Source: Candidatus Babeliales bacterium (GTDB taxonomy: Bacteria; Babelota; Babeliae; Babelales; Chromulinivoraceae). From it: 64,000 nucleotides of DNA. Under the pieces are notes generated by a model. That model did not search any database, was not told the origin of the DNA, and saw nothing but the letters and a program-made list of their open reading frames with translations. The DNA lies in assembly GCA_018061805.1 (NCBI GenBank), contig JAGOTL010000003.1:1416-65415 (forward strand). The letters run 5' to 3'. This document shows positions 3,472 through 39,002 of the stretch, in pieces. Numbering within the stretch: position 1 is the first letter of the stretch; the number at the start of each line of letters is the position of its first letter. The position numbers were made by a program, and so were the translations under genes.

Positions 3472-3586
3472 ATGCCTAATGTGAGCTTAGGCGTTGCAAA
3501 AGGATTTAAATCTATCCCTTAATATTGATTTAGCGGCTTTAAAAACTGTATTTTAAAACTAAATACGTAAAAAAGGGGTGGGGATC

Positions 3587-4903
3587 ATGAAACACAAAGT
3601 ACTCATATGTTTTATTGGAATTTGTTCAATAATTCAAAATATATCGATAGTCGCGTCAGAGCGTAGAAAGTCATCAATTAAAAGTCCTAAAAGCAGAACA
3701 GAGGCGTTTATAGCAGAATGTAGCAATGGTAAAGTTGCTAAAGCAAAAGCATTGCTTGTTTCTTCGGTTAACAAAGATGGTTCATTAGTTTTTAATAAAG
3801 ATCTTGATGTCAATGGTGTTGATAAGCATGGTGACACAGCCTTGATAGCAGCTTGTAAAGGAGGGCATCTGAATGTTGTTGAGTTTTTATTATCACTGAG
3901 TAAATCTAACCAAGCGCCACTCATAGATATCAATAAACAAGGCGAGGATGGTAAGACTGCATTGCTGAGCACGTGTGAACGGTTATTTATGGTGAGCAAT
4001 GATGTAGAAGCACGATACAACCCTCATTTTAATATTATAAAAAAATTATTACAGGCTGGTGCAGATACAACTATTGTTGATAAAAATAACGAAATGATGG
4101 TTAATGTTTTAGCTGATGGCTTGAAAGAGTACAATGGTCTTGTTAATAAACAGCTTAAAAAAGAAATTAAAAAAATGATTGGTGTGTACGACGCATTGAC
4201 AGAGCTAACGGTAAAGCCAACGCCACAAATGATTCAATTTTTAGAAGCGTATGGATCATTTGTAGAAGGTAAGCCGCAAGCGCTGCATGATTTTTTGTTT
4301 AAAAACAAAGTATCCTTTGAAAGTATTATGGATGTTTTGCAGGTTACTTGTAAAACAGATAGCATTGGCCACCTGGTAGATTGGTATGTGGATCTATATC
4401 CAGATGATCGGGAACTCAGACGCATAGCAGATAGATATAAACAACATTTTACGGATTATATAACTGCAGACTTACAAAAAAGTACCACAGAAGAAGATTT
4501 TTCTTCACCAGACATTGAATCATATGATTTAGCAAAATCAACAAGTAGCTCTTTGTTTGAAGAAGAGCAGCAAGATTCTTTAAACGCTTCTGTAAAATTG
4601 CCATCGATCATGCGACGTCCATCAAACTCTGCTGTGAGATCAAAAGATATCCAGGAAGTAAATGAGAAAGCCAATGCTTCTTGGATTGATGATGTACGCG
4701 AGTTAGAGCCATTTACCGTAGTATCTCAGGCACCTAAAGGATTACCTCCATTGGCTCGCCGTCAATCAAGTTTTAATCTGAATAATAGACTCTCTAAAAA
4801 TTCACAATCATTTGTGGATAAAAAACGCGCAGCTGTTTTAGAACAACAAGCGTTGAGTCGGCAAGAGTCTTTATCAGATATAGAATTTTCAGATGCTGAA
4901 TAA
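3587..4903 (+). CDS. Secreted ankyrin-repeat protein with Ser/Glu-rich disordered C-terminal tail
   Basis: ATG at 3587 preceded by aaaaggggtgggg RBS (the listed GTG 3578 is less likely). N-terminal signal-like MKHKVLICFIGICSIIQNISIVAS. ANK motifs GDTALIAACKGGHLNVVEFLL and DGKTALL. Confidence 0.8.
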   Translation: MKHKVLICFIGICSIIQNISIVASERRKSSIKSPKSRTEAFIAECSNGKVAKAKALLVSSVNKDGSLVFNKDLDVNGVDKHGDTALIAACKGGHLNVVEFLLSLSKSNQAPLIDINKQGEDGKTALLSTCERLFMVSNDVEARYNPHFNIIKKLLQAGADTTIVDKNNEMMVNVLADGLKEYNGLVNKQLKKEIKKMIGVYDALTELTVKPTPQMIQFLEAYGSFVEGKPQALHDFLFKNKVSFESIMDVLQVTCKTDSIGHLVDWYVDLYPDDRELRRIADRYKQHFTDYITADLQKSTTEEDFSSPDIESYDLAKSTSSSLFEEEQQDSLNASVKLPSIMRRPSNSAVRSKDIQEVNEKANASWIDDVRELEPFTVVSQAPKGLPPLARRQSSFNLNNRLSKNSQSFVDKKRAAVLEQQALSRQESLSDIEFSDAE

Positions 4904-4926
4904 ATATTAAAAATATTTTATTATTT

Positions 4927-4960
4927 AAAAAAGAGATGGGCTGTAACCCATCTCTTTTTT
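4927..4960. terminator. Bidirectional rho-independent terminator between convergent ANK gene and clpB
   Basis: Stem aaaaaagagatggg / cccatctctttttt with 6-nt loop. A-run upstream and T-run downstream, so it can work on both strands. Confidence 0.75.
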
Positions 4961-4968
4961 ATTTGATA

Positions 4969-7601: not shown

Positions 7602-8771
7602 TTAAAGTTGTTCAATAACTTTTTTTATTGGTTCAAGAGGAACTTCTGCGCAGGATTGAAAAGCTGTCATATAGTGATGAATGTTTCTTTGCCAGTTGTA
7701 TTTATATGTATCTATAAAATTACTTGTTTGAATAGCAGTATATTTTAGACCAAAATTTTCGGATATAAACCAAAACGCTGAATCAACAAGTAGTTGAAAT
7801 ATTTCAATTACCTGTGTCCCCGGTTTACAAAATAAAATGTTGGTTAATCCTGCACCATGTTCTGAAACAACGACATCAGCATTGTTAAACAATAAAATTT
7901 GGTCAATCATTGACAGTGTACTGAGCTTATATCTTTCAAAGCCTTTTGCTTCAAAAATCTTGAAAATTTCATCTTCGTTTTTTATTTTTCGCATAGGAGC
8001 ATCGCTTCGTGAAGCAAAAACTTTTTTTGATAAAGGAATAGATGCTTCATGTTTTTGTGCTGCTTCAAGCAATTTATTGCGAACATAATTTGCAAGAGTT
8101 GGATGTAGCAATAGGCCAATATGATTTTTGAAACCGAAGTTCATGTTAATAACCATTGAAGGTACAATTAATTCATCAGCTTGAATGCAATAATCAAGAC
8201 TACGAGGTGCAATAATTTTACGAGTATCAACCCCCCATAACTCTAAGGTTTCTTTCATATAATTTGAGTATGCGTCAATATACAACCAATCATATTCTAT
8301 GCCATGCATTTCAAGAAGAGCAAGTCGTCCAAGAACTTCACCGATCCAGTGGCAATAGCTGTTGTACACATATTGGGCTATGACAGCAACTCTGCCGGGT
8401 ATTTTGTGAATAGATTCTTCATTGATTGGCACTATATTGCTTAAAAGGTGTGGTTGATCAGCCCATATCATTTCTTTTATAAATTGATCTTCAATGAGTA
8501 CAAACCCAAACTGTGACTGAACTTTCCCATGTGGAATATTTAGAATGAAACATTCTTTAAAATATCCTTCATGAGGAAATAGCGGGGCAGGGGGAAATTC
8601 AGGTATATTAAAATATACATTTCCCAAGCATGGCATGTATCCAATCTCAGGATGCTCTTGCAGTATATGAGCCAAAGGAGCTACGTTGAAACTAGATGCA
8701 GTGCTAGTGGTAAGTAATAATATAAAACCAATGGATATGTTCATGTAAGATGATAAGACCTGTTTGTGCAT
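7602..8771 (-). CDS. GT61/DUF563-type glycosyltransferase with N-terminal signal/anchor
   Basis: C-terminal pattern KKVFASRSDAPMRKIKNEDEI...DQILLFNNADVVVSEHGAGLTNILFCKPGTQVIEI matches the GT61 (DUF563) signature HGAGLTN. Start at ATG 8771 has an AAGGAA RBS with 6-nt spacing. Hydrophobic N-terminus NISIGFILLLTTSTASS. Confidence 0.65.
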   Translation of the reverse strand: MHKQVLSSYMNISIGFILLLTTSTASSFNVAPLAHILQEHPEIGYMPCLGNVYFNIPEFPPAPLFPHEGYFKECFILNIPHGKVQSQFGFVLIEDQFIKEMIWADQPHLLSNIVPINEESIHKIPGRVAVIAQYVYNSYCHWIGEVLGRLALLEMHGIEYDWLYIDAYSNYMKETLELWGVDTRKIIAPRSLDYCIQADELIVPSMVINMNFGFKNHIGLLLHPTLANYVRNKLLEAAQKHEASIPLSKKVFASRSDAPMRKIKNEDEIFKIFEAKGFERYKLSTLSMIDQILLFNNADVVVSEHGAGLTNILFCKPGTQVIEIFQLLVDSAFWFISENFGLKYTAIQTSNFIDTYKYNWQRNIHHYMTAFQSCAEVPLEPIKKVIEQL

Positions 8772-8858
8772 AAAGCATTCCTTTTTTGAAAACATAGATG
8801 TCATGAATTTGGCTGATTATATAACGGAACAAATGTTTTTTCAACGAAACATTTGTTT

Positions 8859-10091
8859 TTATTCAGGTGCAATTAAAGATCTTTTTTTTCTATGATAACT
8901 AATTGCAAATTGATGCGTTTTATCTCTGATTTGTAAGAGCAATGCATCTTCTGGATTGTGAGGATCAAGTTTTATATAATGTAAAAAATCTGCAGATATG
9001 ATTGTTTCTTCTTTTTTGGCCAGACCTACAAGTTCAGCTGTTCCTATCCATGGTTTAATAGCACTTATTTGTCCTTTGCCACCATCAACAATGATAAGAT
9101 TTGGGTACTCTGATTTGTTTTTATAGCGTCGTTGTACTATTTCACGTAGTGCAGCATAGTCATCTTGAGAGATAATAGAGTTAATTTTAAATCTGCGAAA
9201 CGATTTTGGTTCTGGTTGTCCATGTACATAGCGGATACAGCTTCCAACGATAGCAGAGCCTTGTAAGTGTGATATATCAAAACAATCTATGACATAAGGG
9301 ATATGTTTTAAATGCAGTTTTTTTTGTATTGCCTGCAGTATTGGTAAAAATTTCTCATTGCTTTCTGTGCGTTGTTTGCTTGGCATGGTGCTTAACTTTT
9401 CAAGGGTATCTGCAAATGCTTCAAAATTTTGCTTGTAGTTTACCAGTATGCGAGCTCGTTCATACTGTAAAGCTTGAGAAGCATTTTTTATTTCTTGGTC
9501 AATTTGTTTAATGGCAGATTTTAGATTGTTATTTAATAAATGTTTGGCGAGCGTGACGCGGATATTATAAAAATCAATATCAAAATCTTGAGAACAAGAA
9601 CCTGCGCATATACCGATATGATATTCTAAGCAACCGTTTGGTATTTTTTTAGAACAGAGTTTAAGTTGAAATGTTTCCATTAAAAAATTATAAATACTGC
9701 GAGCTACTTTTTTATTTAAAAAAGGCCCTACGTAGGATCCTTTTTTTAATTTTGTTCTAACGATTGATATAGTTGGTATTTTTTCATCTGAAAAAAATAA
9801 ATAAATAAAAGGATTTCCCTCTTTGAGCAGACTATTATATTTTGGTTGGTATTTTTTTATGAGATCAACTTCAAGGTACAATGCTTCAAGCTCACTGTTG
9901 ACAGGTATGGTTTCTAGACGTACAGCTTCATGCAGTATGCGTTCTACTTTGTGGGCATCAGGATTATTAAAATATGAAGCAATACGCGCAGCAAGAGATT
10001 TTGCTTTGCCTATATAGATAATTTCATCAGATGTATTGTAAAAAAGATAGACACCTGGTTTTTTAGAAATATTTTTAGGCCTTTGAAGCAT
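8859..10091 (-). CDS. uvrC: Excinuclease ABC subunit C, short form lacking C-terminal (HhH)2 domain
   Basis: GIY-YIG motif (GVYLFY...IIYIGKAKSLAARI). UVR-like segment (QALQYERARIL). C-terminal endonuclease module (IDCFDISHLQG...IIVDGGKGQ...HQFAISYHRKKR). Only 410 aa against roughly 600 for typical UvrC. Confidence 0.85.
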   Translation of the reverse strand: MLQRPKNISKKPGVYLFYNTSDEIIYIGKAKSLAARIASYFNNPDAHKVERILHEAVRLETIPVNSELEALYLEVDLIKKYQPKYNSLLKEGNPFIYLFFSDEKIPTISIVRTKLKKGSYVGPFLNKKVARSIYNFLMETFQLKLCSKKIPNGCLEYHIGICAGSCSQDFDIDFYNIRVTLAKHLLNNNLKSAIKQIDQEIKNASQALQYERARILVNYKQNFEAFADTLEKLSTMPSKQRTESNEKFLPILQAIQKKLHLKHIPYVIDCFDISHLQGSAIVGSCIRYVHGQPEPKSFRRFKINSIISQDDYAALREIVQRRYKNKSEYPNLIIVDGGKGQISAIKPWIGTAELVGLAKKEETIISADFLHYIKLDPHNPEDALLLQIRDKTHQFAISYHRKKRSLIAPE

Positions 10092-13000
10092 TATGAAATC
10101 CTTGAGCTGTCAGATTGTCTGAGTTTTAAGAATGCCGTTGTATTAAATTGAAAATTTGCTGATCCTGCAGCATTGTTTTGTCGATAAGTGATGTTGTGTG
10201 TTGGCAATGTATGACTGAATATAAATGGATGTGTTGATGTTGTAAACAATGTTGTTGGTGTAGCAGTGTAACCATTGTTACTTGCTTGCACTGTGTTTAC
10301 AGGCGTAAAGACAGGGCTTTGTTGAGCTTGTGAAGCTTTTTGTGCTTGTTGTTGAATATATAATGTTTGAGCTTGCGTAATAGTTTCATATGTAACTTGG
10401 CTTATAGTTTGATTTTGCACAAACAATGATAATTCTTTGAATACATTATATGTTTTTACAGGGGTAGGCACTGTTTGAGATGTTACAGGTGTTTCTTTGG
10501 TATACATATTTCCTGTGACTAAGCTGACAATTGCTTGTGCTTGTGGCGCTGTCGGAGGTAAGCCTACCTGAGCAGGAGAATTATCATTTTCAGGGGTAGA
10601 CGTAAAGATGACGTAATCAACTATTGGTTTATTGGTATTATCTTTGAGTGTTTGTAAGCAGGTATAAAGATATATGCCTTGCTGTAGCATTATTGGTTGT
10701 ATACAATCGAGCATAAAATTACCAAATTTAATTTTTTGTAAACTTTTTTCAACGGTAGAACGTTGTTTTACGATAAAATTGTGCAACGCAGTTGGTAGTA
10801 CTCCAAATGCTGATTTTTCATAGAGCTCTAAGGCTTGAGGTATTATTTTGATAATTTGTTTTTGCTGATTAAACACATAGCCAGTAACTAAGCTTATAAG
10901 CACGTTGCTTGCAGCATCATATTGGTCGTTTGGTGCTTTTCCAATGTTTGTTATTGTACCATTATTGTTGGATGCAAAGATAAGAAAATCAGCAGGATTT
11001 TGAGGATTAAACTTTTTAAGATCAGTGTGAACAGATGCATAGATATACTGACTAAATAAAATTGATTGCTTTGAAAATGGTGTTAAGGGAATGGATCCAA
11101 AGCTTGGATTTAAAGCATTGTGCAAGATGAGTCTATCTTTTTTTCCACGCTCTATTTCTGACACTTGATTTGTTTTTGGTCGGACATTGATATTTGTTTT
11201 TGGCGTAATTTGTGGACTTGTCTGATTCCATTGTATTGCAGCGCCAGAAGAAATAATACCGTACATTCTTTGGCTTTGCAGTGGAATGACTGAAACTGTT
11301 TTTTGAAATATTGGTACTGTATTTTCATCGATGTGTATCATGATAGTTAATTTATCGCGATCAAGTTTTGCTTTTAAAACATAGGTATGTTGCTCGTTGA
11401 GCTGTGCGCTTTGAGGCAACTCTTCTTGAAGTAACCAAGGTTGTTCATTCATGTTTTCATATACGCCAAACATTAAAGGACCTTGTGGATTTGTTCGGTA
11501 TAAAACAAGCATTTTTGATAAATATAATTCGTTGAGATCGACAACGTCAGGATTCAAGTAAGGCGTTGTTGATTGCTTGTTGTTGATAGCATTTTGTAAT
11601 GCATTAAAGTTAGCAGCGATATTTGCAGGTGTGGTTTTAAGAAGTGAAGCAATATATTCAGGAGCAAAATAGTTATGATAATTGCCACCTAAATATATTC
11701 CAACATGAAATTCTGATTCAAGAGTGTATAAAAATTGTAAATTGATATTTACTTCGAGTGGATCTAAAGGCTTCTTAGGAACCATAGTAGGAGTTAAGCT
11801 ATCAATTGCTATACATCGCTGATTAAACCATTGTTTGCTTACCTGATCATTGTTCGTGGTAAAGAGCTGAGGATCTTGTGCTATTTCTTGTGCGTATGGA
11901 AAATCAGGACGGCCTGTTGTTGTGGTGTAAAAACTTTGTGATGGATATAAATTTAAATAACCACTTGTAAGGCCCCACAGTGATCCTGTATTACCCGGTA
12001 TGAGCTGTGTTGAACTATTTGGCACAAGTTGCATGAGGTAAATTTGTGCTAGGACACCGACTATTTTTTGTTGGTATTGATTAACAGCTGCATCGTTATA
12101 ATTTTGAAATAAAGAAAGACCGAGAGAATAGTTACCAATTGCTGCTTGTTGTTTTAATTCTAATTCTTGTAAATAAGCTAAATCGTGTGCAGCTGTTGCA
12201 AGTTTACTTTGCGTATTTGTATTCCATAAATTTTGTAAAACAGATCCTTGCTGTGTTTGTTGTAGTGCGTTAAGTTCATCTTGGTTATATGCACCTATGA
12301 TTGATGTGAGATTGAATGCAATGTTCATAACAGCGCCTATAGGTGAGAAAATTTTTAAGCTGTTTTTTAAATAACGTAACGCTGTTTGTGGTTTAGTTTC
12401 GGATGCAATTTTTTCTGCAACTTCGACAGCTTTTTTTGCTTGAGATAGTTCTTTGGTTGCGCTTTGTACCTTGGCGTTGAGCTGTCGATACGTTTCTTGA
12501 TCGGCGCTTTCTTTATCAGTTCCTATTGATTCTGTTAGTTTTTCTTTGGCAGCTTGTAGTTTCGTTTGCAATTGAGATAATTCTTCTTCTTTAGTTTCTA
12601 CTTGTGCTTTTGCTTCTTGTGCAAGATCTTCATTAGATTTATCAAAAATATTACTTAAGCTTTTTGGTAGCGATTTGAAATTTTCAAGAGTACTTTCTAA
12701 TTTTTCTTGTGCTGTTGCAACGATTTTTGTACTCCATGAACGTGCAGTTTGTTTTGCAGCGCTTGTGATTGTGCTTAATGCTTTTTTTTGTGCACTTTCA
12801 GAAATTAATTTTGCTTCATTTGCCAATTTTTCACGTAAATTATTTTCAGCAGCAGTGACTTCATCTTGTGCGGTTTGTATTTTTACAGGATCATCAGATA
12901 CTTTTGCTTCAGATAATGTTTCTTCTGCATTTGATAATTCTTCTTGAGCTGTTGTTATTTCTTCTTGCAATGCGTCAACACTTGTTTTTTCTATAGAGCC

Positions 13001-15187
13001 CATGATCATGGCGTCTTCTTCAGCATTCACCGTAGCCCCCGCGCCACCTGTTGCAACATCAGTAACTACGTCAGCAGCAATACAAACAGCAACACCCATA
13101 ACTTGGTTAATGATTGATCGTTGAGACTCCAGGGCATTGGTTACTTTGTTTTCTGCAGCTTTACCAAATGCTACGGGATCAAATTTTTGTCCTGTGGAAG
13201 CATCATAAATACCTTGGCCAAGTAGTGATAAGGGATCAAACGATAAAAAGATAAAAGTTATTTCGCTCGATAAATCTATAAACAGTGTCGTGATAGAATT
13301 TATAATAACACCAACAGCTTGCATAACTGCTGCAATGTTTGCTTCATTCATTTTAACTTCTTGTGTATATGCAGTTGTAATATCTGTAACACAGTCTTGC
13401 AACGTGTCATGCCATGTATCTAAAAATTCATTGCGTCCTTGTTTGGTAAAAATAGCCATAGCTCCTTTACCAATGAGTGCTACAACATCAGATAAAATTT
13501 CAGTAACATCTACCACAGATTCTGCAGCCAGAATTCCACCTAGTCCAACAGTGTATCCTGTTATTTGTGCTGTGACTTGAGCAATAGCGCCTGCGGTACT
13601 GTCAATGACTTCTGAAATATCAGCACCCAGTTTTTGATCTTGAGTGATAACGCCTACTAAATCACCTGTAAGTTCACCAATTGGGGCTATGCCATTTTTC
13701 ATACTAGCAGTAAATTCATCGATACTGTTTTGAAGGTCAGTTGTTGCTTTGGTAAATTGTTGCTGCGCATCGGCGCTTAGTGTTTCGCCTTCACGCTCAG
13801 CACCTGGAACAAAAAAGAAAACTTTACACGCAATTCCGGCTATTCCCATACCAACTGCTTCTACAACATGCGCAATTGATTTTCCTGCATCTTCAACTCC
13901 TTTACCAAAATCTTCTGCCGCAGTGGCAATATCATGCCCTATGTCATCAAAAAATGATAAAAAGCTTTGTTGTTTTCCTGTTTGTTTTGGTGGTAGCTGT
14001 TGCGCGAGTGTTTGTATGGATCGAGGCGTTGGGTTAAGCATGGCACTTTTTTTACGAAAATCTTCCGGTTTAAAAGTTGCATGCGCAGGATGCAATGATT
14101 GGGTATGAATGTTTTCAGCTTTTGCTTTAGCAGATAACAGTTCATTGAGTAAAACATAGTCGTTAGCTTGATAGGGAAATAAGTTTGGCAACAATGCAGC
14201 ATTGCTCACTGTTTCTATAACTTGTATAAGGTTTGATTGGGTCATGTGATGTGTTATTTGGCCATACATTTCATAAAACATGTAGTAACCAAAGACATAT
14301 TCTTTTAAAGGGCTTTGTATTTTTTGAGAAGATGATAACAATTGTTGATTAGTGATCTCTTGTTGGTTTTCAATATTTGCGCGAGTTCCAAGCAATGCAT
14401 GTAAATCATGTGTAAGGTTGTAAAAAGAAGTTTGTCTAAATTCGACCACATATTGCTCTAAGGGAATCTCTTGATTCTTTTTTTGTATAATCGTTGGAAG
14501 ATTTTGCCAATTTGGAATTTGTGCAAGATAGTAGTTTTTTACATGCTCTTCAAGTTTGAGCTTGGTTCTGACGACAGCGTTCAGGGTTCTTAAGTTTGTA
14601 TAATCTTGATTATAGTACGATGTTTCAAAGTGTGGTAGATAGTTGAATTCTTGTTTTTCAGTATTGTGTAAAATTTGTAAGGCAATTGCAAAATAAGCAA
14701 AACAATCTGCAACCATGGTTTTACAGATCATTTGCCATAAAGGAGATTGTATAAGGTCTTGTGTTGTCAATGTTGTTTGCAACCATCCTTGCGATTGTAA
14801 CAATTGTGCTGTCGGTAGATGTGGAACATTCGTGTTGTTATCTTGTAAAAAAGGTGCAAAGTCAGGCCTGTATTGTTGAAATTTTGGATCAACGGATACC
14901 TTGTGAAGTTTTGCCATAAAAATAAGATACAAGTAACTGTTTTTTATGTGTTGAACTTGCAAGGTATCCATGTTGATTCCAGATGATCCAAAAATAGTAT
15001 CAATTTGAGACCATATTTTTTTGGTAAAAGCATCTTGTGGTTGCAGCCTTGAAAAAGGAAGAGCGCTAAAAACTTCAATAGAATTATGGTCATTCAGATA
15101 CGTTTTTAAGGGCGATATCTGTGACGCTGCGTGAGTGATGCATGGTATTATTATGAGTAATAATTTGAATATATAACCATAGTTCAT
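10091..15187 (-). CDS. Giant secreted protein of unknown function (1698 aa)
   Basis: Signal-like N-terminus MNYGYIFKLLLIIIPCITHAAS. Gly/Ala-rich hydrophobic segments around aa 415-720. Coiled-coil E/K/Q/A block around aa 735-935. Beta-sandwich-like module around aa 1110-1325. Q/T/P-rich tail. Its stop overlaps the uvrC start by 1 nt. Confidence 0.85.
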   Translation of the reverse strand: MNYGYIFKLLLIIIPCITHAASQISPLKTYLNDHNSIEVFSALPFSRLQPQDAFTKKIWSQIDTIFGSSGINMDTLQVQHIKNSYLYLIFMAKLHKVSVDPKFQQYRPDFAPFLQDNNTNVPHLPTAQLLQSQGWLQTTLTTQDLIQSPLWQMICKTMVADCFAYFAIALQILHNTEKQEFNYLPHFETSYYNQDYTNLRTLNAVVRTKLKLEEHVKNYYLAQIPNWQNLPTIIQKKNQEIPLEQYVVEFRQTSFYNLTHDLHALLGTRANIENQQEITNQQLLSSSQKIQSPLKEYVFGYYMFYEMYGQITHHMTQSNLIQVIETVSNAALLPNLFPYQANDYVLLNELLSAKAKAENIHTQSLHPAHATFKPEDFRKKSAMLNPTPRSIQTLAQQLPPKQTGKQQSFLSFFDDIGHDIATAAEDFGKGVEDAGKSIAHVVEAVGMGIAGIACKVFFFVPGAEREGETLSADAQQQFTKATTDLQNSIDEFTASMKNGIAPIGELTGDLVGVITQDQKLGADISEVIDSTAGAIAQVTAQITGYTVGLGGILAAESVVDVTEILSDVVALIGKGAMAIFTKQGRNEFLDTWHDTLQDCVTDITTAYTQEVKMNEANIAAVMQAVGVIINSITTLFIDLSSEITFIFLSFDPLSLLGQGIYDASTGQKFDPVAFGKAAENKVTNALESQRSIINQVMGVAVCIAADVVTDVATGGAGATVNAEEDAMIMGSIEKTSVDALQEEITTAQEELSNAEETLSEAKVSDDPVKIQTAQDEVTAAENNLREKLANEAKLISESAQKKALSTITSAAKQTARSWSTKIVATAQEKLESTLENFKSLPKSLSNIFDKSNEDLAQEAKAQVETKEEELSQLQTKLQAAKEKLTESIGTDKESADQETYRQLNAKVQSATKELSQAKKAVEVAEKIASETKPQTALRYLKNSLKIFSPIGAVMNIAFNLTSIIGAYNQDELNALQQTQQGSVLQNLWNTNTQSKLATAAHDLAYLQELELKQQAAIGNYSLGLSLFQNYNDAAVNQYQQKIVGVLAQIYLMQLVPNSSTQLIPGNTGSLWGLTSGYLNLYPSQSFYTTTTGRPDFPYAQEIAQDPQLFTTNNDQVSKQWFNQRCIAIDSLTPTMVPKKPLDPLEVNINLQFLYTLESEFHVGIYLGGNYHNYFAPEYIASLLKTTPANIAANFNALQNAINNKQSTTPYLNPDVVDLNELYLSKMLVLYRTNPQGPLMFGVYENMNEQPWLLQEELPQSAQLNEQHTYVLKAKLDRDKLTIMIHIDENTVPIFQKTVSVIPLQSQRMYGIISSGAAIQWNQTSPQITPKTNINVRPKTNQVSEIERGKKDRLILHNALNPSFGSIPLTPFSKQSILFSQYIYASVHTDLKKFNPQNPADFLIFASNNNGTITNIGKAPNDQYDAASNVLISLVTGYVFNQQKQIIKIIPQALELYEKSAFGVLPTALHNFIVKQRSTVEKSLQKIKFGNFMLDCIQPIMLQQGIYLYTCLQTLKDNTNKPIVDYVIFTSTPENDNSPAQVGLPPTAPQAQAIVSLVTGNMYTKETPVTSQTVPTPVKTYNVFKELSLFVQNQTISQVTYETITQAQTLYIQQQAQKASQAQQSPVFTPVNTVQASNNGYTATPTTLFTTSTHPFIFSHTLPTHNITYRQNNAAGSANFQFNTTAFLKLRQSDSSRIS

Positions 15188-15196
15188 ACATTATCC

Positions 15197-16444
15197 TTAC
15201 GCATTTGAAAGTACCGAAGAGGTAATGACAGAAGTAGCTTTTTGTTGTTGCTGTTGAGCAATATATTTTTCTATATCAGTTTTAAATTGTGAGATATCAC
15301 TTGAGTGAAATAAAAGTTGTTCAGGACTTTTTAATGAAAATTCTGCAACAGCTCCTGCTGAGATAAAACCAATACCATGGTATAAAAATAAAGAATCTGT
15401 AGAAGCTTGTGTGCTTGGAGTAGAAGATTTTTTTGTGCCTTTTGGAAGAGCGACTGATATTTTTACGTATTCTTTAGGCTCTGGCATAGACTCAGTCCAG
15501 ATTTTGCATGCAACATAATCAGGATAAGGTTTAATTTTGACGTGTATGATAAATGGTTGTGATGGTTGGTTTACGAACAAAGTTGTATTTAAGGGAATGG
15601 ACAATAATCCTTGAGCATTAAAAATTTGCTCCAAAGGACTATTGATGGTTGTTGTGTTAGTTGAATTGCTTTTTTCTATTTTTTGTTGAGCAAAATAACA
15701 CTTGATAGGGCTTGCGGGTGCAGAGTTATATAGACCAATGGTGCGATATTGATCGAGATCATAACTATTGCCTGATATCCATCGTGCTTTGTTAAAAATA
15801 ATACCAATAAAAAAAGGAGATTGAGTTTTGTACAATGTGATGTCGCATGTTATTTCATATGGTTTTCGTGTAATCCATTCAGTCCAAATAGAATTTTGAG
15901 CAGCCTGTTGCGCTGTTGCACAGGGGACGAGTTGCATTTGCCAAAAAGAATTAGTGTTTTCATCATATTGCCAGTTGCCCACTTGGAATATATTTTTCCA
16001 CAAAGGACCTTTTGGTGTGAGCATGGTAGCCTTTGCAAATTGTTGATCAGCTGTAACGGGATCAACAACATATTGCGATGGTTGTATTTGTAAACTCACA
16101 ATACTATCAATGTATTGTTGCATGTGTGCAAAATTAGATTGTTGTGTTTGCTGCATGTTTTGCATGAATTTAGATGCGCTTGAAAAAAGATTGAACATGG
16201 AGCCTAGTGATTGTTGTTGAGATTGTTGCACTGTTTGTAAAAAAGAACTTGAAGCAAGAGATAGATTGCTTTGGCTACTTTGTAAACCTTGTGAGATTTC
16301 TGAGTAGGTTGATGTAACAGTTTGGTTTGCAATACTTGCGCCTTCTTGAGCGCCCATCATAAGTGACATGTCACGAATCATATTGCCGTGAACTGTTGCA
16401 TTACCCAGCAATAGAAAACCATAAATATAGTGTATTAATTTCAT
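15197..16444 (-). CDS. Secreted protein with Q/S-rich N-region and concanavalin/DUF1080-like C-terminal module
   Basis: Signal-like MKLIHYIYGFLLLGNATVHG. aa ~145-375 (GNWQYDENTNSFWQ...FFIGIIFNKARW...LYHGIGFISAGAVAEF) resembles DUF1080/LamG-type beta-sandwich patterns. 9-nt gap to the giant gene. Confidence 0.75.
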   Translation of the reverse strand: MKLIHYIYGFLLLGNATVHGNMIRDMSLMMGAQEGASIANQTVTSTYSEISQGLQSSQSNLSLASSSFLQTVQQSQQQSLGSMFNLFSSASKFMQNMQQTQQSNFAHMQQYIDSIVSLQIQPSQYVVDPVTADQQFAKATMLTPKGPLWKNIFQVGNWQYDENTNSFWQMQLVPCATAQQAAQNSIWTEWITRKPYEITCDITLYKTQSPFFIGIIFNKARWISGNSYDLDQYRTIGLYNSAPASPIKCYFAQQKIEKSNSTNTTTINSPLEQIFNAQGLLSIPLNTTLFVNQPSQPFIIHVKIKPYPDYVACKIWTESMPEPKEYVKISVALPKGTKKSSTPSTQASTDSLFLYHGIGFISAGAVAEFSLKSPEQLLFHSSDISQFKTDIEKYIAQQQQQKATSVITSSVLSNA

Positions 16445-16453
16445 GTTAGTCCT

Positions 16454-18085
16454 TTATGGTTGGGTCAGTAGGGTTGGTGTTGCAAGTATAGAAGAGCTTG
16501 TCATTGATGTAGGAATAGTAGGTATTTCAGATGTTGATGGAGCAACTTGGTCTACAAAACCCTGTGTTGCAAATAAACGCCATTTTTGAAGTTGTTGTAA
16601 ACATTCAGGGCTGATAGCGATACTGTTTGGATCTGCACCATGTTGAGTTTGCACAATGATGTTGATGAGATGCTCTAAGCATGGATCAAGAATTTGCATA
16701 CCGATCAATGCTGAAAAATCTCCAAAGCAAGCACGCATTATTTTTGCAATGCCATCCCAAGAGTTAAGCCAATCAGGTTGCGCTATGACTTTTTCTTCAA
16801 ATAAATTTTCACCAAGGCGCATACAGATATATAAATGTGCTGAAGGGTTATTTTCAAAGTTACGTATGACTTGACCTAGGTTGTTTTTAAAATAAGCAAT
16901 CGGATGAGGTTTATTACCTACAAGAACAAGTTGTTGTTGAGCAGCTTGCACAATGTGTGCGGGCCATGGAACAGATTTTGTGGTAGCAGGGATTGTTTGA
17001 GCAATGTACGGAATAGTTTGCAAAGCACGCATATCGTCATAGCCAAAATAAAATAATGGAGGATTCATTTTAGTAAGAGAGGCAATGAATTTATCATCAG
17101 TTGGTGCTACGTCGCTGTACAGATATTGGTTAATTGTTTCTGCGATATCTACAAAAGCTGTAAAAAACTGAGGTTTTTTAGGATGCGGTGTTTGCATGTA
17201 GGCAGTATATTTTTGAAAAAAATTAAGATAGTCTACAATAGCTGTGAGATATGTTTTTTTGAGTTGAACAAGTTGAGGTTTTTTTTGTGGCTCCATTAAA
17301 ATAGAAAGATCCATGCTGTAATCATTTTGTACAGCTGTTTTGCCAATAAATGTTGCAAACATCTGAGGAAGCGACGTTACTCGTGTTTGTTGCTGTACTT
17401 TATCGTACAAAGTGTGTGTTGTGCAAGCTCGTATGTGGCTATTAAATTGTGACTCAATGATTGCCATGAGGTGATTTATAATCATTGTCTTGCTGTTCAT
17501 ATCATAATCTTGTTCAGAGCGTAAAAAGGCAGGAACGCTAACTGAAAGTTCCTTGGTGTGACTATTTTGCGCGATGCCAGGGTGTTGCAAATTAAAGTTA
17601 ATATAAACACCCATTAAATAATGGTACAACTCAATAAGAACATTGCTATGCACTTTTCTAAAAAATGTTACAAGCTTTGGGTCTTGTTTACATGTCGCAA
17701 GCATAGCATCAAACAATGATGCTAAATCTGGGTATTTAGAAAAAAGAGCAGCTCCTGCAGGATAATTTTTAAAAGCATTTTTGGAAGGTTTTAAGATAGA
17801 AAGTCCAGCGTTGCGTATGACAGGGATTGTTTTTAAAGGGGGCATAGCTTTAATAGCGCGAGTTTGTATACCCTGATGAACTTTTAGTTGGTTTGGCATG
17901 ATTCCAAGGAGGGGATATGTGTTGACAGTTTTTATAAGATTTGAAACAGCAGTATGATTGTTTAGAGTTGTTGCAGCGCTTATAAACATTGTATCAGCAA
18001 GAGTAGGTGATGGTTGTGCAGAGTAGCTGGTATGCGATGGAACAAACCAAAAACAAAGTATGATTGTAATAATTATTGCATTCAT
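16454..18085 (-). CDS. Secreted protein of unknown function (543 aa), first gene of the 3-gene cluster
   Basis: Signal-like MNAIIITIILCFWFVPSHTSYSA. Long ORF with no competing frame. 9-nt gap to the next gene. Confidence 0.75.
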   Translation of the reverse strand: MNAIIITIILCFWFVPSHTSYSAQPSPTLADTMFISAATTLNNHTAVSNLIKTVNTYPLLGIMPNQLKVHQGIQTRAIKAMPPLKTIPVIRNAGLSILKPSKNAFKNYPAGAALFSKYPDLASLFDAMLATCKQDPKLVTFFRKVHSNVLIELYHYLMGVYINFNLQHPGIAQNSHTKELSVSVPAFLRSEQDYDMNSKTMIINHLMAIIESQFNSHIRACTTHTLYDKVQQQTRVTSLPQMFATFIGKTAVQNDYSMDLSILMEPQKKPQLVQLKKTYLTAIVDYLNFFQKYTAYMQTPHPKKPQFFTAFVDIAETINQYLYSDVAPTDDKFIASLTKMNPPLFYFGYDDMRALQTIPYIAQTIPATTKSVPWPAHIVQAAQQQLVLVGNKPHPIAYFKNNLGQVIRNFENNPSAHLYICMRLGENLFEEKVIAQPDWLNSWDGIAKIMRACFGDFSALIGMQILDPCLEHLINIIVQTQHGADPNSIAISPECLQQLQKWRLFATQGFVDQVAPSTSEIPTIPTSMTSSSILATPTLLTQP

Positions 18086-18221
18086 TCATAGAGCCTTTTT
18101 TCATTTTTTTAAGATATAAAAAACTATTGTAAAAAAAGCAATGTTTTATTTTCGATTTTTGTTAGACTAATGAGCGTACATTCATCATTTTCTACTGTTC
18201 AACACAATTAAGGACATATAC

Positions 18222-19430
18222 ATGATTCCTCAAGGAAGATATATATTTTTAGGATTAATTTTAATTATTGTTGGCTATACTGCGCGTAAAACATATTTGT
18301 ATTATTTTGATCAATCTCAACCTGTTGTAACCATACAAGGTTTTGAAGATGGCAAAGGATACAGTGGCGATGTAGTTGGTTCAATTAAAGGAAGTTCTAA
18401 TTATAAAGTTTCACACATTTCTACATGGCTCGATGATGTTTTAGTGCATAGTGATTTTAAAATTAATCGCAAACAGTTTGAGCATCCTATCTCAATTCCT
18501 GCTAAATCAATACCTGATGGTCAGCATACTTTAAAAATTGAAGTAGTTGATAGTACAAAGCATCAAAATAAAACTTGTATGCAATGTGTTTTTTATACCG
18601 ATAATCTTGATTTGCAAACAGCTTTACCGACATTGTCATCAGCGTATAAGGTTCAGCAAGGTCGTTGTTTATATATTCAATTGCAAGTTAATAAGCCTGT
18701 TAAATCAGCTGTTGTGCATGTTTTAAATAACGATTACGAAATGTATCCTGAAATTAAAAGTGGGTTAATATACGAAGTACACATACCAATTGAATGTGAA
18801 CAAGATCCAGGTGAATATCCATTTACGGTTGATGTCGTAGATAGGCTTGGTAAAAAGATGAGCTTTGATGGTAAGTTTACCGTTATAGCATATCCTTTTA
18901 AGCGTAAAATTTTATCTATTACAGGTAATAAATTACAAACAGAACTTGAGTTTACTCCGCTGCAAGAACAAGACTTAGAAGAACGCATGGAAAAATTAGC
19001 AGCACAATCAGGCAAAGAAAAATTGTGGACAGGACCGTTTGATGTTCCAATTGTTATGAAAGGAATCACGACTGACTTTGGTGTGATTCGTACGTCACAA
19101 GAACGTGGCCGTAAAGTTCATAAAGCATTAGATATCGTATCAGATCCAAAATGTGTTATTTGGGCATCTCATAATGGTGTTGTTGTATTAAAAGATCGAT
19201 TTACACATACTGGTAACACTGTTGTGATAGATCATGGCTGTGGTGTGCTTAGCTTGTATTGTCATCTGTATGATTATACCGATATTAATGTTGGTCAAAA
19301 AGTTAAAAAAGGTCATCCGCTTGGTCATATGGGTATGACTGGTTATGCAAGTGGTGATCATTTACATTGGGAAATTCGCGTTAAAAATAGCGCTGTTGAT
19401 CCTATGCAATGGACTCAACGTTGGAATTAA
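18222..19430 (+). CDS. M23 (LytM-type) peptidoglycan metalloendopeptidase, membrane anchored
   Basis: N-terminal TM segment (YIFLGLILIIVGY). C-terminal M23 motifs HKALD (HxxxD) and GDHLHWE (HxH). AAGGA RBS before the ATG. Confidence 0.9.
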   Translation: MIPQGRYIFLGLILIIVGYTARKTYLYYFDQSQPVVTIQGFEDGKGYSGDVVGSIKGSSNYKVSHISTWLDDVLVHSDFKINRKQFEHPISIPAKSIPDGQHTLKIEVVDSTKHQNKTCMQCVFYTDNLDLQTALPTLSSAYKVQQGRCLYIQLQVNKPVKSAVVHVLNNDYEMYPEIKSGLIYEVHIPIECEQDPGEYPFTVDVVDRLGKKMSFDGKFTVIAYPFKRKILSITGNKLQTELEFTPLQEQDLEERMEKLAAQSGKEKLWTGPFDVPIVMKGITTDFGVIRTSQERGRKVHKALDIVSDPKCVIWASHNGVVVLKDRFTHTGNTVVIDHGCGVLSLYCHLYDYTDINVGQKVKKGHPLGHMGMTGYASGDHLHWEIRVKNSAVDPMQWTQRWN

Positions 19431-19481
19431 GTTTTTTCTTGATAAGAATGGGCACATAAGACGCAATAATATTTTAGTTTT

Positions 19482-19526
19482 AAAAATCCACTTAAGATAC
19501 TTCGGTATTCTGAGTGGATTTTTCAT
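19482..19526. terminator. Bidirectional hairpin terminator
   Basis: Outer stem aaaaatccact / agtggattttt enclosing an imperfect inner stem with a TTCG loop. A-run and T-run on either side. Lies between convergent genes. Confidence 0.7.
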
Positions 19527-19625
19527 TTAAACAGAGCCGTTTTAAAGCGCTAATTTCTAAGTAAACCACACAAGAAAGACAAAAGGTATTAAGTAAACGT
19601 TAGCTGTTAAAAAGTAACTTGAAAA

Positions 19626-20192
19626 TTACAGCATCACTGACGTATACAATCCTGAAAACAAATGTGATATTATCCAAACGTACCCAATAGTAATAAAGAA
19701 ACCTACGTAGTCCATGTTGCATAAAAAAGCTATAGGGCGTAAGAAGCAATATATTATTTTTAAAGGCAGTGGAAATTGTTTAATATGTCCTTTGACGTCA
19801 AGGTCTTTTTGGCTAGGTATGGCATGAAATAAAATAGAATATCCTATCCAGCTGTTTACAGTAAAAATGAAGTTTGTCATAACAGAGCTGGTATAGTATG
19901 GTAAATCGTAAGGAGTATTTTCAATCAACATATTAGGTAATAAGATTAATGATCCTAAAATGCTATTAATCCATAATGGTCCCGTTGCAATTAAAAATGT
20001 AGCGGTTCCTGAATGGTTGGTAGTATTTTCATGGATAACATAACCTGCTGTTTTAGAACCTATATTAAAGTAATTTGCTGCAAATACTTTTACCTTATAC
20101 ATATCACAAAAAAATCGATGAGCTATTTCATGTATAATGACACCTGGAAATGTTAAAAATGCTATAAGTTCACCGGGAATTATAAATACCAT
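19626..20192 (-). CDS. Polytopic membrane protein with HExxH motif (putative intramembrane zincin, DUF3267-like)
   Basis: 188 aa with several TM segments. HEIAH sits at the end of the first TM segment (FPGVIIHEIAHRFF). Confidence 0.5.
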   Translation of the reverse strand: MVFIIPGELIAFLTFPGVIIHEIAHRFFCDMYKVKVFAANYFNIGSKTAGYVIHENTTNHSGTATFLIATGPLWINSILGSLILLPNMLIENTPYDLPYYTSSVMTNFIFTVNSWIGYSILFHAIPSQKDLDVKGHIKQFPLPLKIIYCFLRPIAFLCNMDYVGFFITIGYVWIISHLFSGLYTSVML

Positions 20193-20194
20193 CT

Positions 20195-20761
20195 TTAATC
20201 CTTTGGTAAATCTTGAATTTGTACATTTATATAATATTGTTTTGCTTGAGAATCGTAATTAAGGCCAGATAGGAAAAAGTTTTGCTTTGTCTCTGACAAA
20301 CAAGATTTGAGTGCGGCAACATCATCGTTACTTAATAAAATGCCGTTTAAAACACGAAACCCTAAAACAAACGTAGATGTGTATATATCAGTATCAGAGC
20401 TTGATAAGAAGCAAAGCTGAGCAACGAGAACACGTAAAGGGGTGTAAGAAGGATATGTGTCTAGCAGCTTTAATGCATTATTGAGAGCATCGTTGTACAT
20501 TTTAGCGGATTTTTTTAGGGTAATGTTTTTCATTGCGCGATTGTACATTTGCCACCCTGAGGTGCAATTAATATAAAAATAGGTGCTGCTAAAAATAAAA
20601 CAAAACAAGATAAAGGCCGCAAATATTTTTATAAGAACAGGGTATTGATGTGGTACAAGTACGGGATGATCGAAGGTGTTTTTTACTTTTTGAATATCAG
20701 TATCAAGATTTGAAAATGGAATATTCTGAGTAGGTTGAGTATGTGTATGTTGTTGTTCCAT
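20195..20761 (-). CDS. Single-pass membrane protein of unknown function
   Basis: Start taken at MEQQHTH (ATG 20761, AGGG RBS). One TM segment (LIKIFAAFILFCFIFSSTYFY). 2-nt gap to the downstream HExxH gene. Confidence 0.55.
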   Translation of the reverse strand: MEQQHTHTQPTQNIPFSNLDTDIQKVKNTFDHPVLVPHQYPVLIKIFAAFILFCFIFSSTYFYINCTSGWQMYNRAMKNITLKKSAKMYNDALNNALKLLDTYPSYTPLRVLVAQLCFLSSSDTDIYTSTFVLGFRVLNGILLSNDDVAALKSCLSETKQNFFLSGLNYDSQAKQYYINVQIQDLPKD

Positions 20762-20854
20762 GTAAACCCTTTTTTGCGTTAGACAAGAACACATGTACCC
20801 CTTGAATCTCTTATTGCTTTTTAATTCTTTGGGGTTCGCTATATGTCTCTATAC

Positions 20855-22351
20855 TTATGATGCAAAGCTTAAGTTAACCCTAGAGAGCAAGTATTTAATG
20901 TCGTCATCTGCAAATCTTATACCAACACCCCAGAATGATGATGCGTTATCACTTACAAAGTCATCAAAACCAAACGTTGTATAAATGTTGTTAAACAAGA
21001 ATATTCTGTTGATCCATTTTAAATGGGGACGACGTTCAGTATTGAGTTGTAACCGTTGAATACCGCTAAAGTCAAACATTTCAAATGATGTGATCCATGA
21101 AAGAGATTTATTGGTGATTGGAATAAAGTAATCAGCACCAACACCAAATGTTCCTTCAAATAAACCAATACGCATAGCAAAGTTGTTATAAATTTTACCG
21201 AATTGGAAACCATATGCATACATTTGACGATGTTGTCTAATGGTTAAAGGTGCATGCATTCTACGGTTTAATGAAGCGATTTCATCAGATGGATCTGGAG
21301 ATATTTCATCATATGGTATTTCTTCATAGGTGTTGAGTCGAGAGTTGCAGTAGGTGTTATAAATATAATCCCTGCTTCCAAACCCACGCTCAGATGTTGC
21401 TATTTGACCTAGATAAAACGAATTATTGCTGGTGTGAATTCGTACGTTAAAATAACCTTTTGATGTTGTAAATTTAAATTGGTCAACTGGGCGATGTAAA
21501 TTTTCAGCATGAGCATCTAAAACAACGCTCATAGTTTCAATTTTTGATAGATAATTTTTAACGCCACTTACCGCTGTTTTGATGTCGCGATACATATCAT
21601 CTTCGTTGATAAGTTTACCAAGTAAGCCTTTACCTTCATCCAATTTTTGTGAAATTGATGAGAAGGTGCTAAATGTTTCGTGTGCTTCATCTGCAGCTTT
21701 TGTAATGGTATCAGCAGATGTGTGAATGTTATCAATTACATTTTTGATACTATCTTGGTTGTCGCCAATTGCATTATCAAGTGATGTTGATAAGCGTTCT
21801 ATTTTTGCAGATGCGCTTGATAAGTTTTCAACAAGTGATCGTAGTTGTTCTGTTTTTTCAGGTCCAGCAAAGGCTTCTTTCATGCTGTCTGTTACTTGTT
21901 CTACGTGTGATGCAATGTTTTTGAATTTTTGCAGTAATTCATCAATCGAAACAGCTTCACGGCCCGGACGAGCAAGTGTTTTACCAGAGCGTAACTTTGG
22001 AAGCATTGGGTCGCCGGGTATAAGTTCTAAATATTTAGTCCCGATTAAACCATCTTGTCGTACAACGGCATACGCATTGTCATATAAAGCATACTTGGTG
22101 CTAACCATGATCTGAGCTTGTGCTTTACCTGTATTGTTTAACTCGATGCTTTCTACCCATCCAACTTTAACACCAGCTATTTTGACTTCTGCTTTTTTTG
22201 AAAGGCCAGAAACGTCATCAAAGGAAACAGTGTATGGAGCGTATCCTGATGCTGAAAATCTAAATGCACCAATACCAATAGTCATAACGACAAATATTGT
22301 TATCGCAAGAATGACAAAGACGCCAACCTTGGTTTCAGTTTTAATCTGCAA
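20855..22351 (-). CDS. MCE/MlaD-domain protein with helical linker and beta-rich C-terminal extension
   Basis: N-terminal TM plus MCE domain (VSFDDVSGLSKKAEVKIAGVKVGWVESIEL...VRQDGLIGTKYLELIPG). Helical region with GLLGKLINEDDMY. The last ~210 aa have an alternating aromatic/hydrophobic beta pattern. Confidence 0.8.
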   Translation of the reverse strand: MQIKTETKVGVFVILAITIFVVMTIGIGAFRFSASGYAPYTVSFDDVSGLSKKAEVKIAGVKVGWVESIELNNTGKAQAQIMVSTKYALYDNAYAVVRQDGLIGTKYLELIPGDPMLPKLRSGKTLARPGREAVSIDELLQKFKNIASHVEQVTDSMKEAFAGPEKTEQLRSLVENLSSASAKIERLSTSLDNAIGDNQDSIKNVIDNIHTSADTITKAADEAHETFSTFSSISQKLDEGKGLLGKLINEDDMYRDIKTAVSGVKNYLSKIETMSVVLDAHAENLHRPVDQFKFTTSKGYFNVRIHTSNNSFYLGQIATSERGFGSRDYIYNTYCNSRLNTYEEIPYDEISPDPSDEIASLNRRMHAPLTIRQHRQMYAYGFQFGKIYNNFAMRIGLFEGTFGVGADYFIPITNKSLSWITSFEMFDFSGIQRLQLNTERRPHLKWINRIFLFNNIYTTFGFDDFVSDNASSFWGVGIRFADDDIKYLLSRVNLSFAS

Positions 22352-22363
22352 AATATTCTCCGT

Positions 22364-23395: not shown

Positions 23396-23398
23396 AGA

Positions 23399-25745: not shown

Positions 25746-25766
25746 AAAATCCTTTCATCGTTTTTT

Positions 25767-31974: not shown

Positions 31975-31994
31975 TAATTAATCCTTATTATTTC

Positions 31995-36498: not shown

Positions 36499-36555
36499 TA
36501 TAAGTAATATGGTGGGTTATTTTCTCATAAATCGGTGGTAAGGGATACGCCTGTG

Positions 36556-37230: not shown

Positions 37231-37254
37231 TCATTGAGTGTAAGGACACAACAA

Positions 37255-38079: not shown

Positions 38080-38084
38080 AAGTA
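38032..38084 (+). repeat. 53-bp perfect direct repeat, copy 1 (last 15 codons plus stop of the 37255..38079 gene)
   Basis: aatagacaagctcgtgcacttgaagagcgcaatagattagagcgttaaaagta is identical to 39003..39055 (checked base by base). Confidence 0.95.
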
Positions 38085-38115
38085 GATTTTAGGGATTTAT
38101 ATCAGGGACTTATAT

Positions 38116-38994: not shown

Positions 38995-39002
38995 AGGTTA
39001 AA

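Follow-up and report, generated by a model that had tools for sequence, protein, structure and literature searches.

A phylum-wide block of three genes for predicted exported proteins in Dependentiae, a candidate envelope complex

What kind of system is encoded by three large, consecutive genes that abut uvrC in a member of the Dependentiae and match no curated protein family? The genes lie in a stretch of 64,000 nucleotides (nt) from a Candidatus Babeliales bacterium (GenBank assembly GCA_018061805.1, contig JAGOTL010000003.1, positions 1,416 to 65,415), hereafter called the window, and their predicted products are termed P1, P2 and P3. The Dependentiae, obligate parasites of protists, are widespread and almost uncultured; their Gram-negative envelope is degenerate, and their apparatus for host entry or effector delivery has not been described. 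The trio takes about 8 kb of a genome of roughly 1-1.5 Mb and its order is retained at every locus examined; given this size, the retained order and the lack of a matching family or fold where tested, it is likely to be central either to building the envelope or to dealings with the host. The explanation that we favour, and that comes close to being probable, is that P1, P2 and P3 form a Dependentiae-specific, Sec-exported complex that is kept in the bacterial envelope, membrane-associated and periplasmic, possibly working with the M23 endopeptidase encoded next to it.

All three open reading frames (ORFs) lie on the minus strand, P1 at 16454..18085 (543 amino acids, aa), P2 at 15197..16444 (415 aa) and P3 at 10091..15187 (1698 aa). 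The block spans 7,995 nt, i.e. 12.5% of the window, in line with the share of about 12% given in a preliminary description of this DNA, and its GC content equals that of the rest of the window. Read directly from the sequence, each junction between the three ORFs consists of 9 nt on the minus strand: TAA-aggactaac-ATG between P1 and P2 (16445..16453), with AGGA at its start, and TAA-ggataatgt-ATG between P2 and P3 (15188..15196), with AAGGA overlapping the P2 stop codon. An AGGA Shine-Dalgarno-like motif is present at both gaps and, as each gap is 9 nt long, P1, P2 and P3 share one reading frame, with a stop codon plus exactly three codons between consecutive ORFs. The P3 stop codon overlaps the start of uvrC (TAATG), so that the geometry reported earlier (minus-strand ORFs of 543, 415 and 1698 aa, 9-nt gaps, overlapped uvrC start) was recovered in full. 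At the sequence level, the AGGA motifs at the two gaps and the overlapping TAATG point to a single unit with coupled translation. Other loci have short gaps or overlaps of 4-11 nt at the junctions of the trio. A divergent, AT-rich intergenic region of 136 nt (18086..18221), presumed to be the promoter region, separates P1 from the M23 gene. A single weak -35/-10 match was found there (18155-18126, minus strand), by a consensus scan that was not enriched over shuffles, and no terminator-like site was seen from P1 through to clpB. Beyond the block, a hairpin with a 15-bp stem and runs of A and T on its flanks (4926-4961), placed between the convergent ends of an ankyrin gene and clpB, is likely to be a bidirectional terminator.

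The synteny survey covered 11 GTDB species representatives, the complete genome of Chromulinavorax destructans SeV1 and a divergent lineage (L016). The P1-P2-P3 order is kept in all 13 of these other loci, a recurrence far beyond chance, and persists at about 22-30% identity to the window, where mlaD, GT61 and clpB have moved. The M23 gene lies divergently, 5' of P1, in 12 of the 12 loci having an upstream flank; no other neighbour of the trio is as constant, and its product may be a partner in function. On the other side, uvrC follows the trio in 9 of the 12 loci having a downstream flank; this adjacency is conserved synteny, not evidence for a common function, and we treat uvrC as a conserved downstream neighbour outside the proposed complex. 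Relative to locus L004, the trio shows 39-44% identity versus 69-80% for M23, UvrC and ClpB, and hence appears ancient yet comparatively fast-evolving. In C. destructans the orthologues measure 595, 558 and 1583 aa and adjoin uvrC, and in the L016 lineage they measure 1305, 1108 and 1692 aa, both P1 and P2 being longer in these two lineages. The L016 P1 (4319-8236) owes its 1305 aa to an insertion of some 600 residues midway through the P1 domain, and the 1108-aa P2 of the same lineage carries an Ala/Glu/Lys-rich coiled-coil extension like that of P3. An apparent P1-P2 fusion in L005 proved to be an artefact of a run of N.

Could the three genes simply encode unrelated lineage-specific exported proteins, adjacent only through frozen gene order in small genomes? 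The flanking housekeeping genes uvrC, clpB and M23 are also syntenic, and Pfam-negative ORFs with signal-peptide-like N-termini are common across the window, so that the trio's want of annotation is in itself unremarkable. However, wider synteny fails in distant genomes, which lack mlaD upstream, and in 4 loci uvrC has been displaced or is missing; the P1-P2-P3 order and its tight spacing persist all the same. Start/stop coupling at each junction, the joint lengthening of P1 and P2 in the C. destructans and L016 lineages and a weak in-register similarity of P2 to P3 (see below) likewise argue against frozen order, which we hold to be very unlikely as the whole explanation. What sets the trio apart from other unannotated ORFs is its size, its coupling, its conservation at every locus examined and its confident predicted folds without a neighbour in the PDB.

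The preliminary description had called the three proteins ORFans, a label that has to be dropped, as P1, P2 and P3 have 95, 114 and 37 database relatives, respectively. Identical proteins are deposited at NCBI as KBD08_01045/50/55 of Candidatus Babeliales bacterium (Dependentiae/TM6), and the relatives are all unnamed or labelled Dependentiae, Babeliales or Chromulinivorax, bar a few evidently mis-binned metagenome-assembled genomes. None of the relatives of P1, P2 or P3 carries a precomputed Pfam domain, and the P3 homologues range from 1140 to 2042 aa (n = 37). For P2, an exhaustive search of 1.84 billion representatives with a profile hidden Markov model (HMM) gave a family of 143 matches, 139 of them below 1e-10, and reached no outside relatives, so that this family is sharply bounded; the long N-terminal extensions of some P2 relatives are Pfam-negative and not related to P1 or P3. 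The same genes also occur in assembly GCA_020047435.1, in which exact copies of P2 and P3 lie on short contigs (contig JAHZTN010014632.1), and in two SRA runs (SRR11088486/7), these loci being L001-L003. That assembly has >14,000 contigs, and the same bacterium may thus be an associate or a contaminant in the project.

Searches against known families left the trio unassigned, as the preliminary description had it. P1, P2 and P3 gave no match in Pfam or NCBIfam at E<=0.1 and none in PHROGs, PADLOC returned only one spurious match of 15.7 bits (P1), and profile searches of PDB sequences with all three families yielded coiled-coil noise only. Domains of Tc/ABC toxins, Rhs and RTX proteins, autotransporters and two-partner adhesins (VRP1/TcA, RHS repeats, RTX repeats, autotransporter beta-domain, TPS/haemagglutinin) were absent in Pfam and NCBIfam at the same cut-off. 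More generally, no similarity to a toxin, adhesin, translocator or pore-former was found, at the level of families for P1-P3 and of folds for P1 and the N-terminal part of P3. A tblastn match of P3 304-385 at 43141-43359 was dismissed as spurious because it runs antisense to a 654-aa ORF. Neither the two main genome papers on Dependentiae nor later papers were found to mention these proteins. With coupling at each junction, a phylum-wide order and no curated-family match, the earlier view of the trio as an uncharacterised multi-component unit holds.

By inspection and hydropathy of the window proteins and about 150 homologues, the N-termini of all three families are of the Sec (signal peptidase I) type, with a charged n-region, a hydrophobic h-region and small residues before the mature part; these signals, already recognised in the preliminary description, are conserved across the homologues. 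P1 is laid out as a signal peptide (about residues 1-22), a compact alpha+beta domain (about 30-510) and a Ser/Thr/Pro-rich tail that ends in a conserved LLxQP peptide. Its AlphaFold2 model, computed from the family alignment, is a single alpha+beta domain with a mean predicted local distance difference test score (pLDDT) of 87.8 and a predicted template modelling score (pTM) of 0.87. Foldseek found no neighbour for this model in the PDB (best E 0.37, template modelling (TM) score 0.12) and nothing in BFVD. Two well-conserved cysteines, Cys453 and that of a DPC motif, lie 16 residues apart (CFGDFSAL...DPC), a pair that fits an oxidising compartment. P1 and P3 are unrelated by both BLAST and hhalign.

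P3, as judged from the alignment and conservation profile of its 37 homologues, is a predicted exported protein of several domains, all encoded on the minus strand. It begins with an all-alpha globular domain (residues about 25-370; 14078..15115), whose invariant polar and aromatic residues include E177, N182, E188, T189, Y192, D195 and R200. AlphaFold2 modelling of residues 1-740 gave this N-domain with confidence (about 40-360, with pLDDT >90 over most of 50-360) and, beyond it, long helices of low confidence; Foldseek again found no PDB neighbour for the modelled part (best E 0.2), so that neither this domain nor P1 places the trio in a characterised system. Residues 411-730 (12998..13957), delimited by composition and family hydropathy, were earlier read as a Gly-zipper block; the region is indeed rich in Gly and Ala (24% together), and is better described as an acidic, hydrophobic helical block, with an isoelectric point (pI) of about 4.2 and a grand average of hydropathy of +0.31. 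Its conserved segments include NSITTLFIDLSxE (about 630-645) and HRxTINQVMGV...TGGAG (about 688-718). A DAxIMGA motif, which resembles the mature N-terminus of P2, precedes a spacer of variable length (731-945; 12353..12997) that is Ala/Glu/Lys-rich and has the lowest conservation and occupancy in the alignment. For this spacer, the long coiled coil of the preliminary description is borne out by composition and by PDB sequence matches that are coiled-coil only (about 730-945), and by nothing further. A conserved Gln-rich helical region (946-1100) and a conserved module (1101-1335) follow, and the protein closes with a basic domain (1336-1575, pI about 9) and a low-complexity tail (1576-1698), delimited by regional pI and family C-termini (together 10094..11182). 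The tail contains a conserved RQxQAAGxxxFQ motif with short repeats on both flanks. Sitting on flexible linkers, the conserved terminal peptides of P3 and P1 look like assembly docking motifs.

Would the hydrophobic block hold P3 in the bacterial envelope? Its hydrophobic character is kept in orthologues with diverged sequence, and its last helix stands in a conserved context (HR-x-T-I-N...TGG). Helices of transmembrane grade are found in several P3 orthologues, those of L010, L013, L015 and L016 among them; the last helix has a Kyte-Doolittle mean of 3.16 in L010 (IVMSVVFVIVVSVIVVAIT), of 2.52 in C. destructans (IVMGVVLAVALTILTLGAA) and of 2.11 in L013, and that of L016 also passes. By established Sec behaviour, a helix this hydrophobic leaves the channel sideways and enters the inner membrane (stop-transfer), so that P3 of those lineages should stay in the envelope. 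In 36 of the 37 family members, the stretch that follows the last helix has a strongly acidic character (net -4 to -9), while that before it is neutral to basic; under the positive-inside rule, this would put the C-terminal arm of P3 outside the cytoplasm and would call for at least one earlier membrane crossing, i.e. a hairpin.

P2 adds to this picture. It is a predicted exported protein with 114 homologues, in which a short signal peptide precedes a Met-rich mature N-terminus (conserved motif NMxxDMAVMMGAQxGAS); a helical stretch rich in Gln comes next, and then a C-terminal module, likewise conserved (motifs NKARWISG and YHGIGF). Taking [LVI][ASTVI][GAS]C at the end of the h-region as the lipobox, canonical lipoboxes are present in the longer orthologues P0101 (LSGC), P0111 (LSGC) and P0116 (LAGC), and a near-canonical one in P0131 (TAGC); the P2 of the window has none. 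Together with the signal peptides, the transmembrane-grade P3 helix of some orthologues and the conserved M23 neighbour, these lipoboxes make the envelope function suggested earlier plausible.

A different kind of envelope function has also to be weighed, namely that the trio, rather than being a static scaffold, is a device for biogenesis or transport. It might serve, for example, as a periplasmic chaperone or conduit for outer-membrane components where lipopolysaccharide (LPS) is scarce, or it might assist the type II secretion/type IV pilus apparatus. Such a device would suit Babeliales, whose outer membrane is degenerate and which are without most LPS genes (PMC4776705). It would also suit the genes found 2-9 kb upstream on the same strand of the window, which encode GspF/PilC, two pilin-like proteins and an MCE (MlaD-domain) protein. 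One P2 orthologue is named 'OmpH family' by NCBI, and 5 of 59 members match PF03938 weakly (best E 0.0013). The window P2 does not match PF03938, however, and P0112 scores 15.8 bits against a gathering cut-off of 32.4; as the matches are below threshold and confined to the Gln-rich helical stretch, they are probably compositional, and the OmpH identity was rejected. The pilus/MCE neighbourhood is moreover lost in distant genomes, and no domain of known transport systems was detected in Pfam or NCBIfam. A role of this kind is, in our judgement, unlikely.

Are P2 and P3 related? BLAST and whole-profile hhalign comparison of P2 with P3 gave nothing significant. A larger P2 HMM, built from about 240 P2-family sequences and run with reversed and shuffled controls, matched at least 16 P3-family members in register, P2 305-400 aligning with P3 1263-1353 (11129..11401, minus strand) with a best individual E of 4.5e-4. 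Across the P3 family, 10 matches had an independent E below 0.5, versus 1 each in the reversed and shuffled controls. Positions 21-26 of the P2 HMM also align in register with P3 718-723, within the DAxIMGA motif (about 718-732); the reversed-sequence control gave nearly as many N-terminal matches, so that most of the N-terminal signal between P2 and P3 is composition. Of the shared module claimed earlier, putatively a beta-sandwich, the weak in-register match above controls thus stands and the whole-profile comparison does not bear it out; from these alignments, we regard a module common to P2 and P3, with P3 1263-1353 as the counterpart of the C-terminal part of the P2 module, as a probable, weakly supported candidate. 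A jelly-roll of the concanavalin-A-like lectin/glucanase kind (e.g. DUF1080), of which the strand motifs of this module may be reminiscent, was not matched by it at the sequence level in Pfam, the PDB or the exhaustive profile search.

Within the envelope complex that we favour, P3 would be the backbone, and both its N-terminal alpha-domain and its last 1000 residues would be periplasmic. The acidic block in its centre would be associated with the inner membrane, probably through one helical hairpin or several, acting as a true membrane anchor in some lineages and as a weaker one in that of the window, and the coiled-coil spacer would project the C-terminal module, basic domain and tail toward peptidoglycan or the outer membrane. 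With about 200-400 residues, a coiled coil would measure about 15-50 nm, according to whether it folds back upon itself. P2 would be a short relative of the P3 stretch that comprises the Met-rich motif, the helical region and the C-terminal module, would be lipid-anchored in some lineages and would probably co-assemble with P3; the in-register profile match supports related, co-assembling subunits. P1 would be a compact periplasmic partner with a predicted fold lacking a PDB neighbour, and translational coupling would help to keep the subunit amounts in balance. Such a complex would most likely span the envelope and have a structural or organising part in tethering, in spacing or in remodelling the wall, and the M23 peptidase may act with it. 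The observation made in the preliminary description is thus real apart from the ORFan label, and its reading of the trio as an uncharacterised multi-component unit of the envelope or host interface is partly supported; the mechanism proposed here is drawn from localisation signals and synteny.

Several points weigh against this envelope complex. In the clade of the window, the helices equivalent to those of transmembrane grade have Kyte-Doolittle means of 1.7-1.9 and contain Asp or Glu, and no P3 helix passes an approximate Hessa-type insertion sum; P3 of this clade could hence be soluble and travel further, e.g. via the encoded type II secretion system. Taken literally, orthologues with a single clear transmembrane helix would have a cytoplasmic C-terminal half. 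The acidic hydrophobic block resembles in character the regions with which toxins insert into membranes upon a pH trigger, and the faster evolution of the trio relative to its housekeeping neighbours is a pattern that also suits surface or host-facing proteins. Finally, we infer assembly of P1, P2 and P3 from synteny and coupling, and no structural match informs function.

The same points lend themselves to another explanation, in which the trio leaves the cell, through type II secretion or in vesicles, as a surface or secreted complex for host interaction. The acidic helices of P3 would insert into the membrane of the acidified food vacuole, for escape or delivery, while the C-terminal modules would bind the host and P1 and P2 would serve as helper or co-pore subunits. 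Dependentiae are taken up by phagotrophic protists and are found in the host cytoplasm within hours, and 44% of the C. destructans proteins have signal peptides, many of them being of unknown function (PMC6561590), both of which favour this possibility. Beyond Sec and the type II secretion/type IV pilus machinery, genomic surveys (PMC4776705) name no delivery system, a gap that counts in the same direction. A hydrophobic yet acidic block, predicted as long helices of low confidence, as expected of a region that changes state, window-clade helices below the Sec stop-transfer threshold and the fast evolution of the trio would fit as well. On the other hand, several P3 orthologues have a helix that should be too hydrophobic to pass SecYEG unintegrated, judging from stop-transfer, and some P2 orthologues are lipoproteins by their lipobox. 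The putative binding half at the C-terminus is about as conserved as the N-domain, though the hosts of Dependentiae are very diverse. The lack of resemblance to toxins, adhesins, translocators or pore-formers noted above, the housekeeping gene context and the unremarkable GC content also speak against export to the host, which we consider possible but doubtful. The host-attack role advanced in the preliminary description found no positive evidence, and is weakened because the helix of the L010, C. destructans and L016 P3 proteins should be retained in the inner membrane.

In its boldest form, the host-directed idea makes the trio a phylum-wide membrane-active machine, made of protein families without detectable relatives. 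It would be the missing device with which Dependentiae break through the membrane of the host vacuole or reshape it, or bring in their many effectors with signal peptides or ankyrin repeats, the P3 block inserting and P1 and P2 acting as assembly or targeting subunits. We give this version little chance.

Turning to the neighbouring genes, the M23 (LytM-type) peptidase at 18222..19430 (plus strand), identified with Pfam and NCBIfam, is membrane-anchored and has intact HxxxD and HxH motifs, from which it looks like an active peptidoglycan endopeptidase. Among the Dependentiae, Babela massiliensis is without most genes for peptidoglycan synthesis. Downstream of the trio, uvrC (8859..10091, minus strand) is short, encoding 410 aa with GIY-YIG and UvrC_RNaseH domains and without HhH2 (Pfam, NCBIfam); UvrC orthologues in other Dependentiae loci are equally short (about 405-417 aa). 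The next gene after uvrC (7602-8804, minus strand) encodes a glycosyltransferase of the GT61 family whose N-terminus is hydrophobic, and L006 has three copies of it in tandem (17970-21227); GT61 enzymes are mostly eukaryotic. Upstream of the trio lies a type II secretion/type IV pilus-like cluster (20855-26981, minus strand). Its GspF/PilC gene (25767-26981) and its pair of N-methyl pilin-like genes (23399-24813) are followed by the gene for a 498-aa MCE (MlaD-domain) protein, which has a helical extension of roughly 380 aa. A functional tie of the trio to these genes was set aside, their adjacency not being kept in distant genomes; in C. destructans, ABC transporter and ATP synthase genes are found upstream of the M23 gene.

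The window contains other ORFs of note. Two adjacent Pfam-negative ORFs of 926 and 432 aa (30676-34775, minus strand) have signal-peptide-like N-termini and may be a second operon of exported proteins. Four consecutive Pfam-negative ORFs of 231-292 aa lie at 36535-39907 (plus strand), two of them weakly alike (E 2e-5), and the 654-aa ORF mentioned above (42130-44094, plus strand) is also Pfam-negative; several of these five have signal-peptide-like N-termini. A 737-aa ORF (46449-48662, plus strand) contains two tandem D-Ala-D-Ala ligase units, the N- and C-terminal Ddl domains each matching twice. Ankyrin-repeat proteins are encoded at 3578-4903, 48719-50521 and 50588-52477 (plus strand), two of them in tandem, and are typical of the host-interaction content of Dependentiae.

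With P1 and the P3 N-domain, the trio contributes two or more predicted folds of high confidence for which the PDB has no neighbour, and the orthologues of the cultivated C. destructans provide concrete targets. Should the trio be merely a lineage-specific structural scaffold, it would still be useful as a marker cassette for the phylum.

How does the trio compare with systems already known? Phage tape-measure proteins are likewise very long and helical, with Gly/Ala-rich hydrophobic segments and often M23 domains alongside. However, P1-P3 lack a PHROG match, the flanks are uvrC, clpB and M23 and the surroundings free of phage genes, every genome examined keeps the position, and M23 is a separate, divergent gene of cellular type. 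Skp/OmpH comes to mind through the NCBI name of one P2 orthologue and through the predicted periplasmic location and helical Gln-rich arm of P2, whose 280-aa C-terminal module is absent from Skp. Tripartite alpha-pore-forming toxins (Hbl/Nhe/SmhABC and XaxAB, of the ClyA fold) share with the trio three consecutive genes and helical signal-peptide proteins with hidden hydrophobic helices. Their components are, by contrast, paralogous proteins of about 35-45 kDa with the ClyA fold, whereas those of the trio measure 543, 415 and 1698 aa; the trio has no match to the Pfam HBL family, and Foldseek comparison of P1 with Hbl-B (2nrj) and XaxAB (6gy6) gave noise (probability 0.04-0.10, TM score 0.08-0.18; for Hbl-B, probability 0.10, TMq 0.12 and TMt 0.18). 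The translocation regions of single-chain AB toxins (the T domain of diphtheria toxin, large clostridial toxins and CNF1) also place acid-rich hydrophobic helices between an N-terminal globular domain and, as putatively in P3, C-terminal binding modules. They differ in that there is no homology, in that the gene of the trio is chromosomal, syntenic and present at every locus examined, and in that some P3 orthologues have transmembrane-grade helices incompatible with Sec-dependent release. There remains the Tol-Pal system, from which the trio departs in having no sequence or profile similarity to TolA, TolB, Pal, CpoB or TolQR (Pfam, NCBIfam, PDB profiles), no tolQR-like motor genes in its conserved neighbourhood and, in P3, a cleavable-type signal peptide, a predicted periplasmic N-domain of 350 aa and a hydrophobic block that lies centrally instead of at the N-terminus. 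By analogy, the complex proposed here would nonetheless be most like a TolA-type trans-envelope strut with partners: a membrane-anchored protein whose long Ala/Glu/Lys-rich helical spacer carries a C-terminal domain toward the outer layers, encoded with periplasmic and lipoprotein partners and tied to wall remodelling and division.

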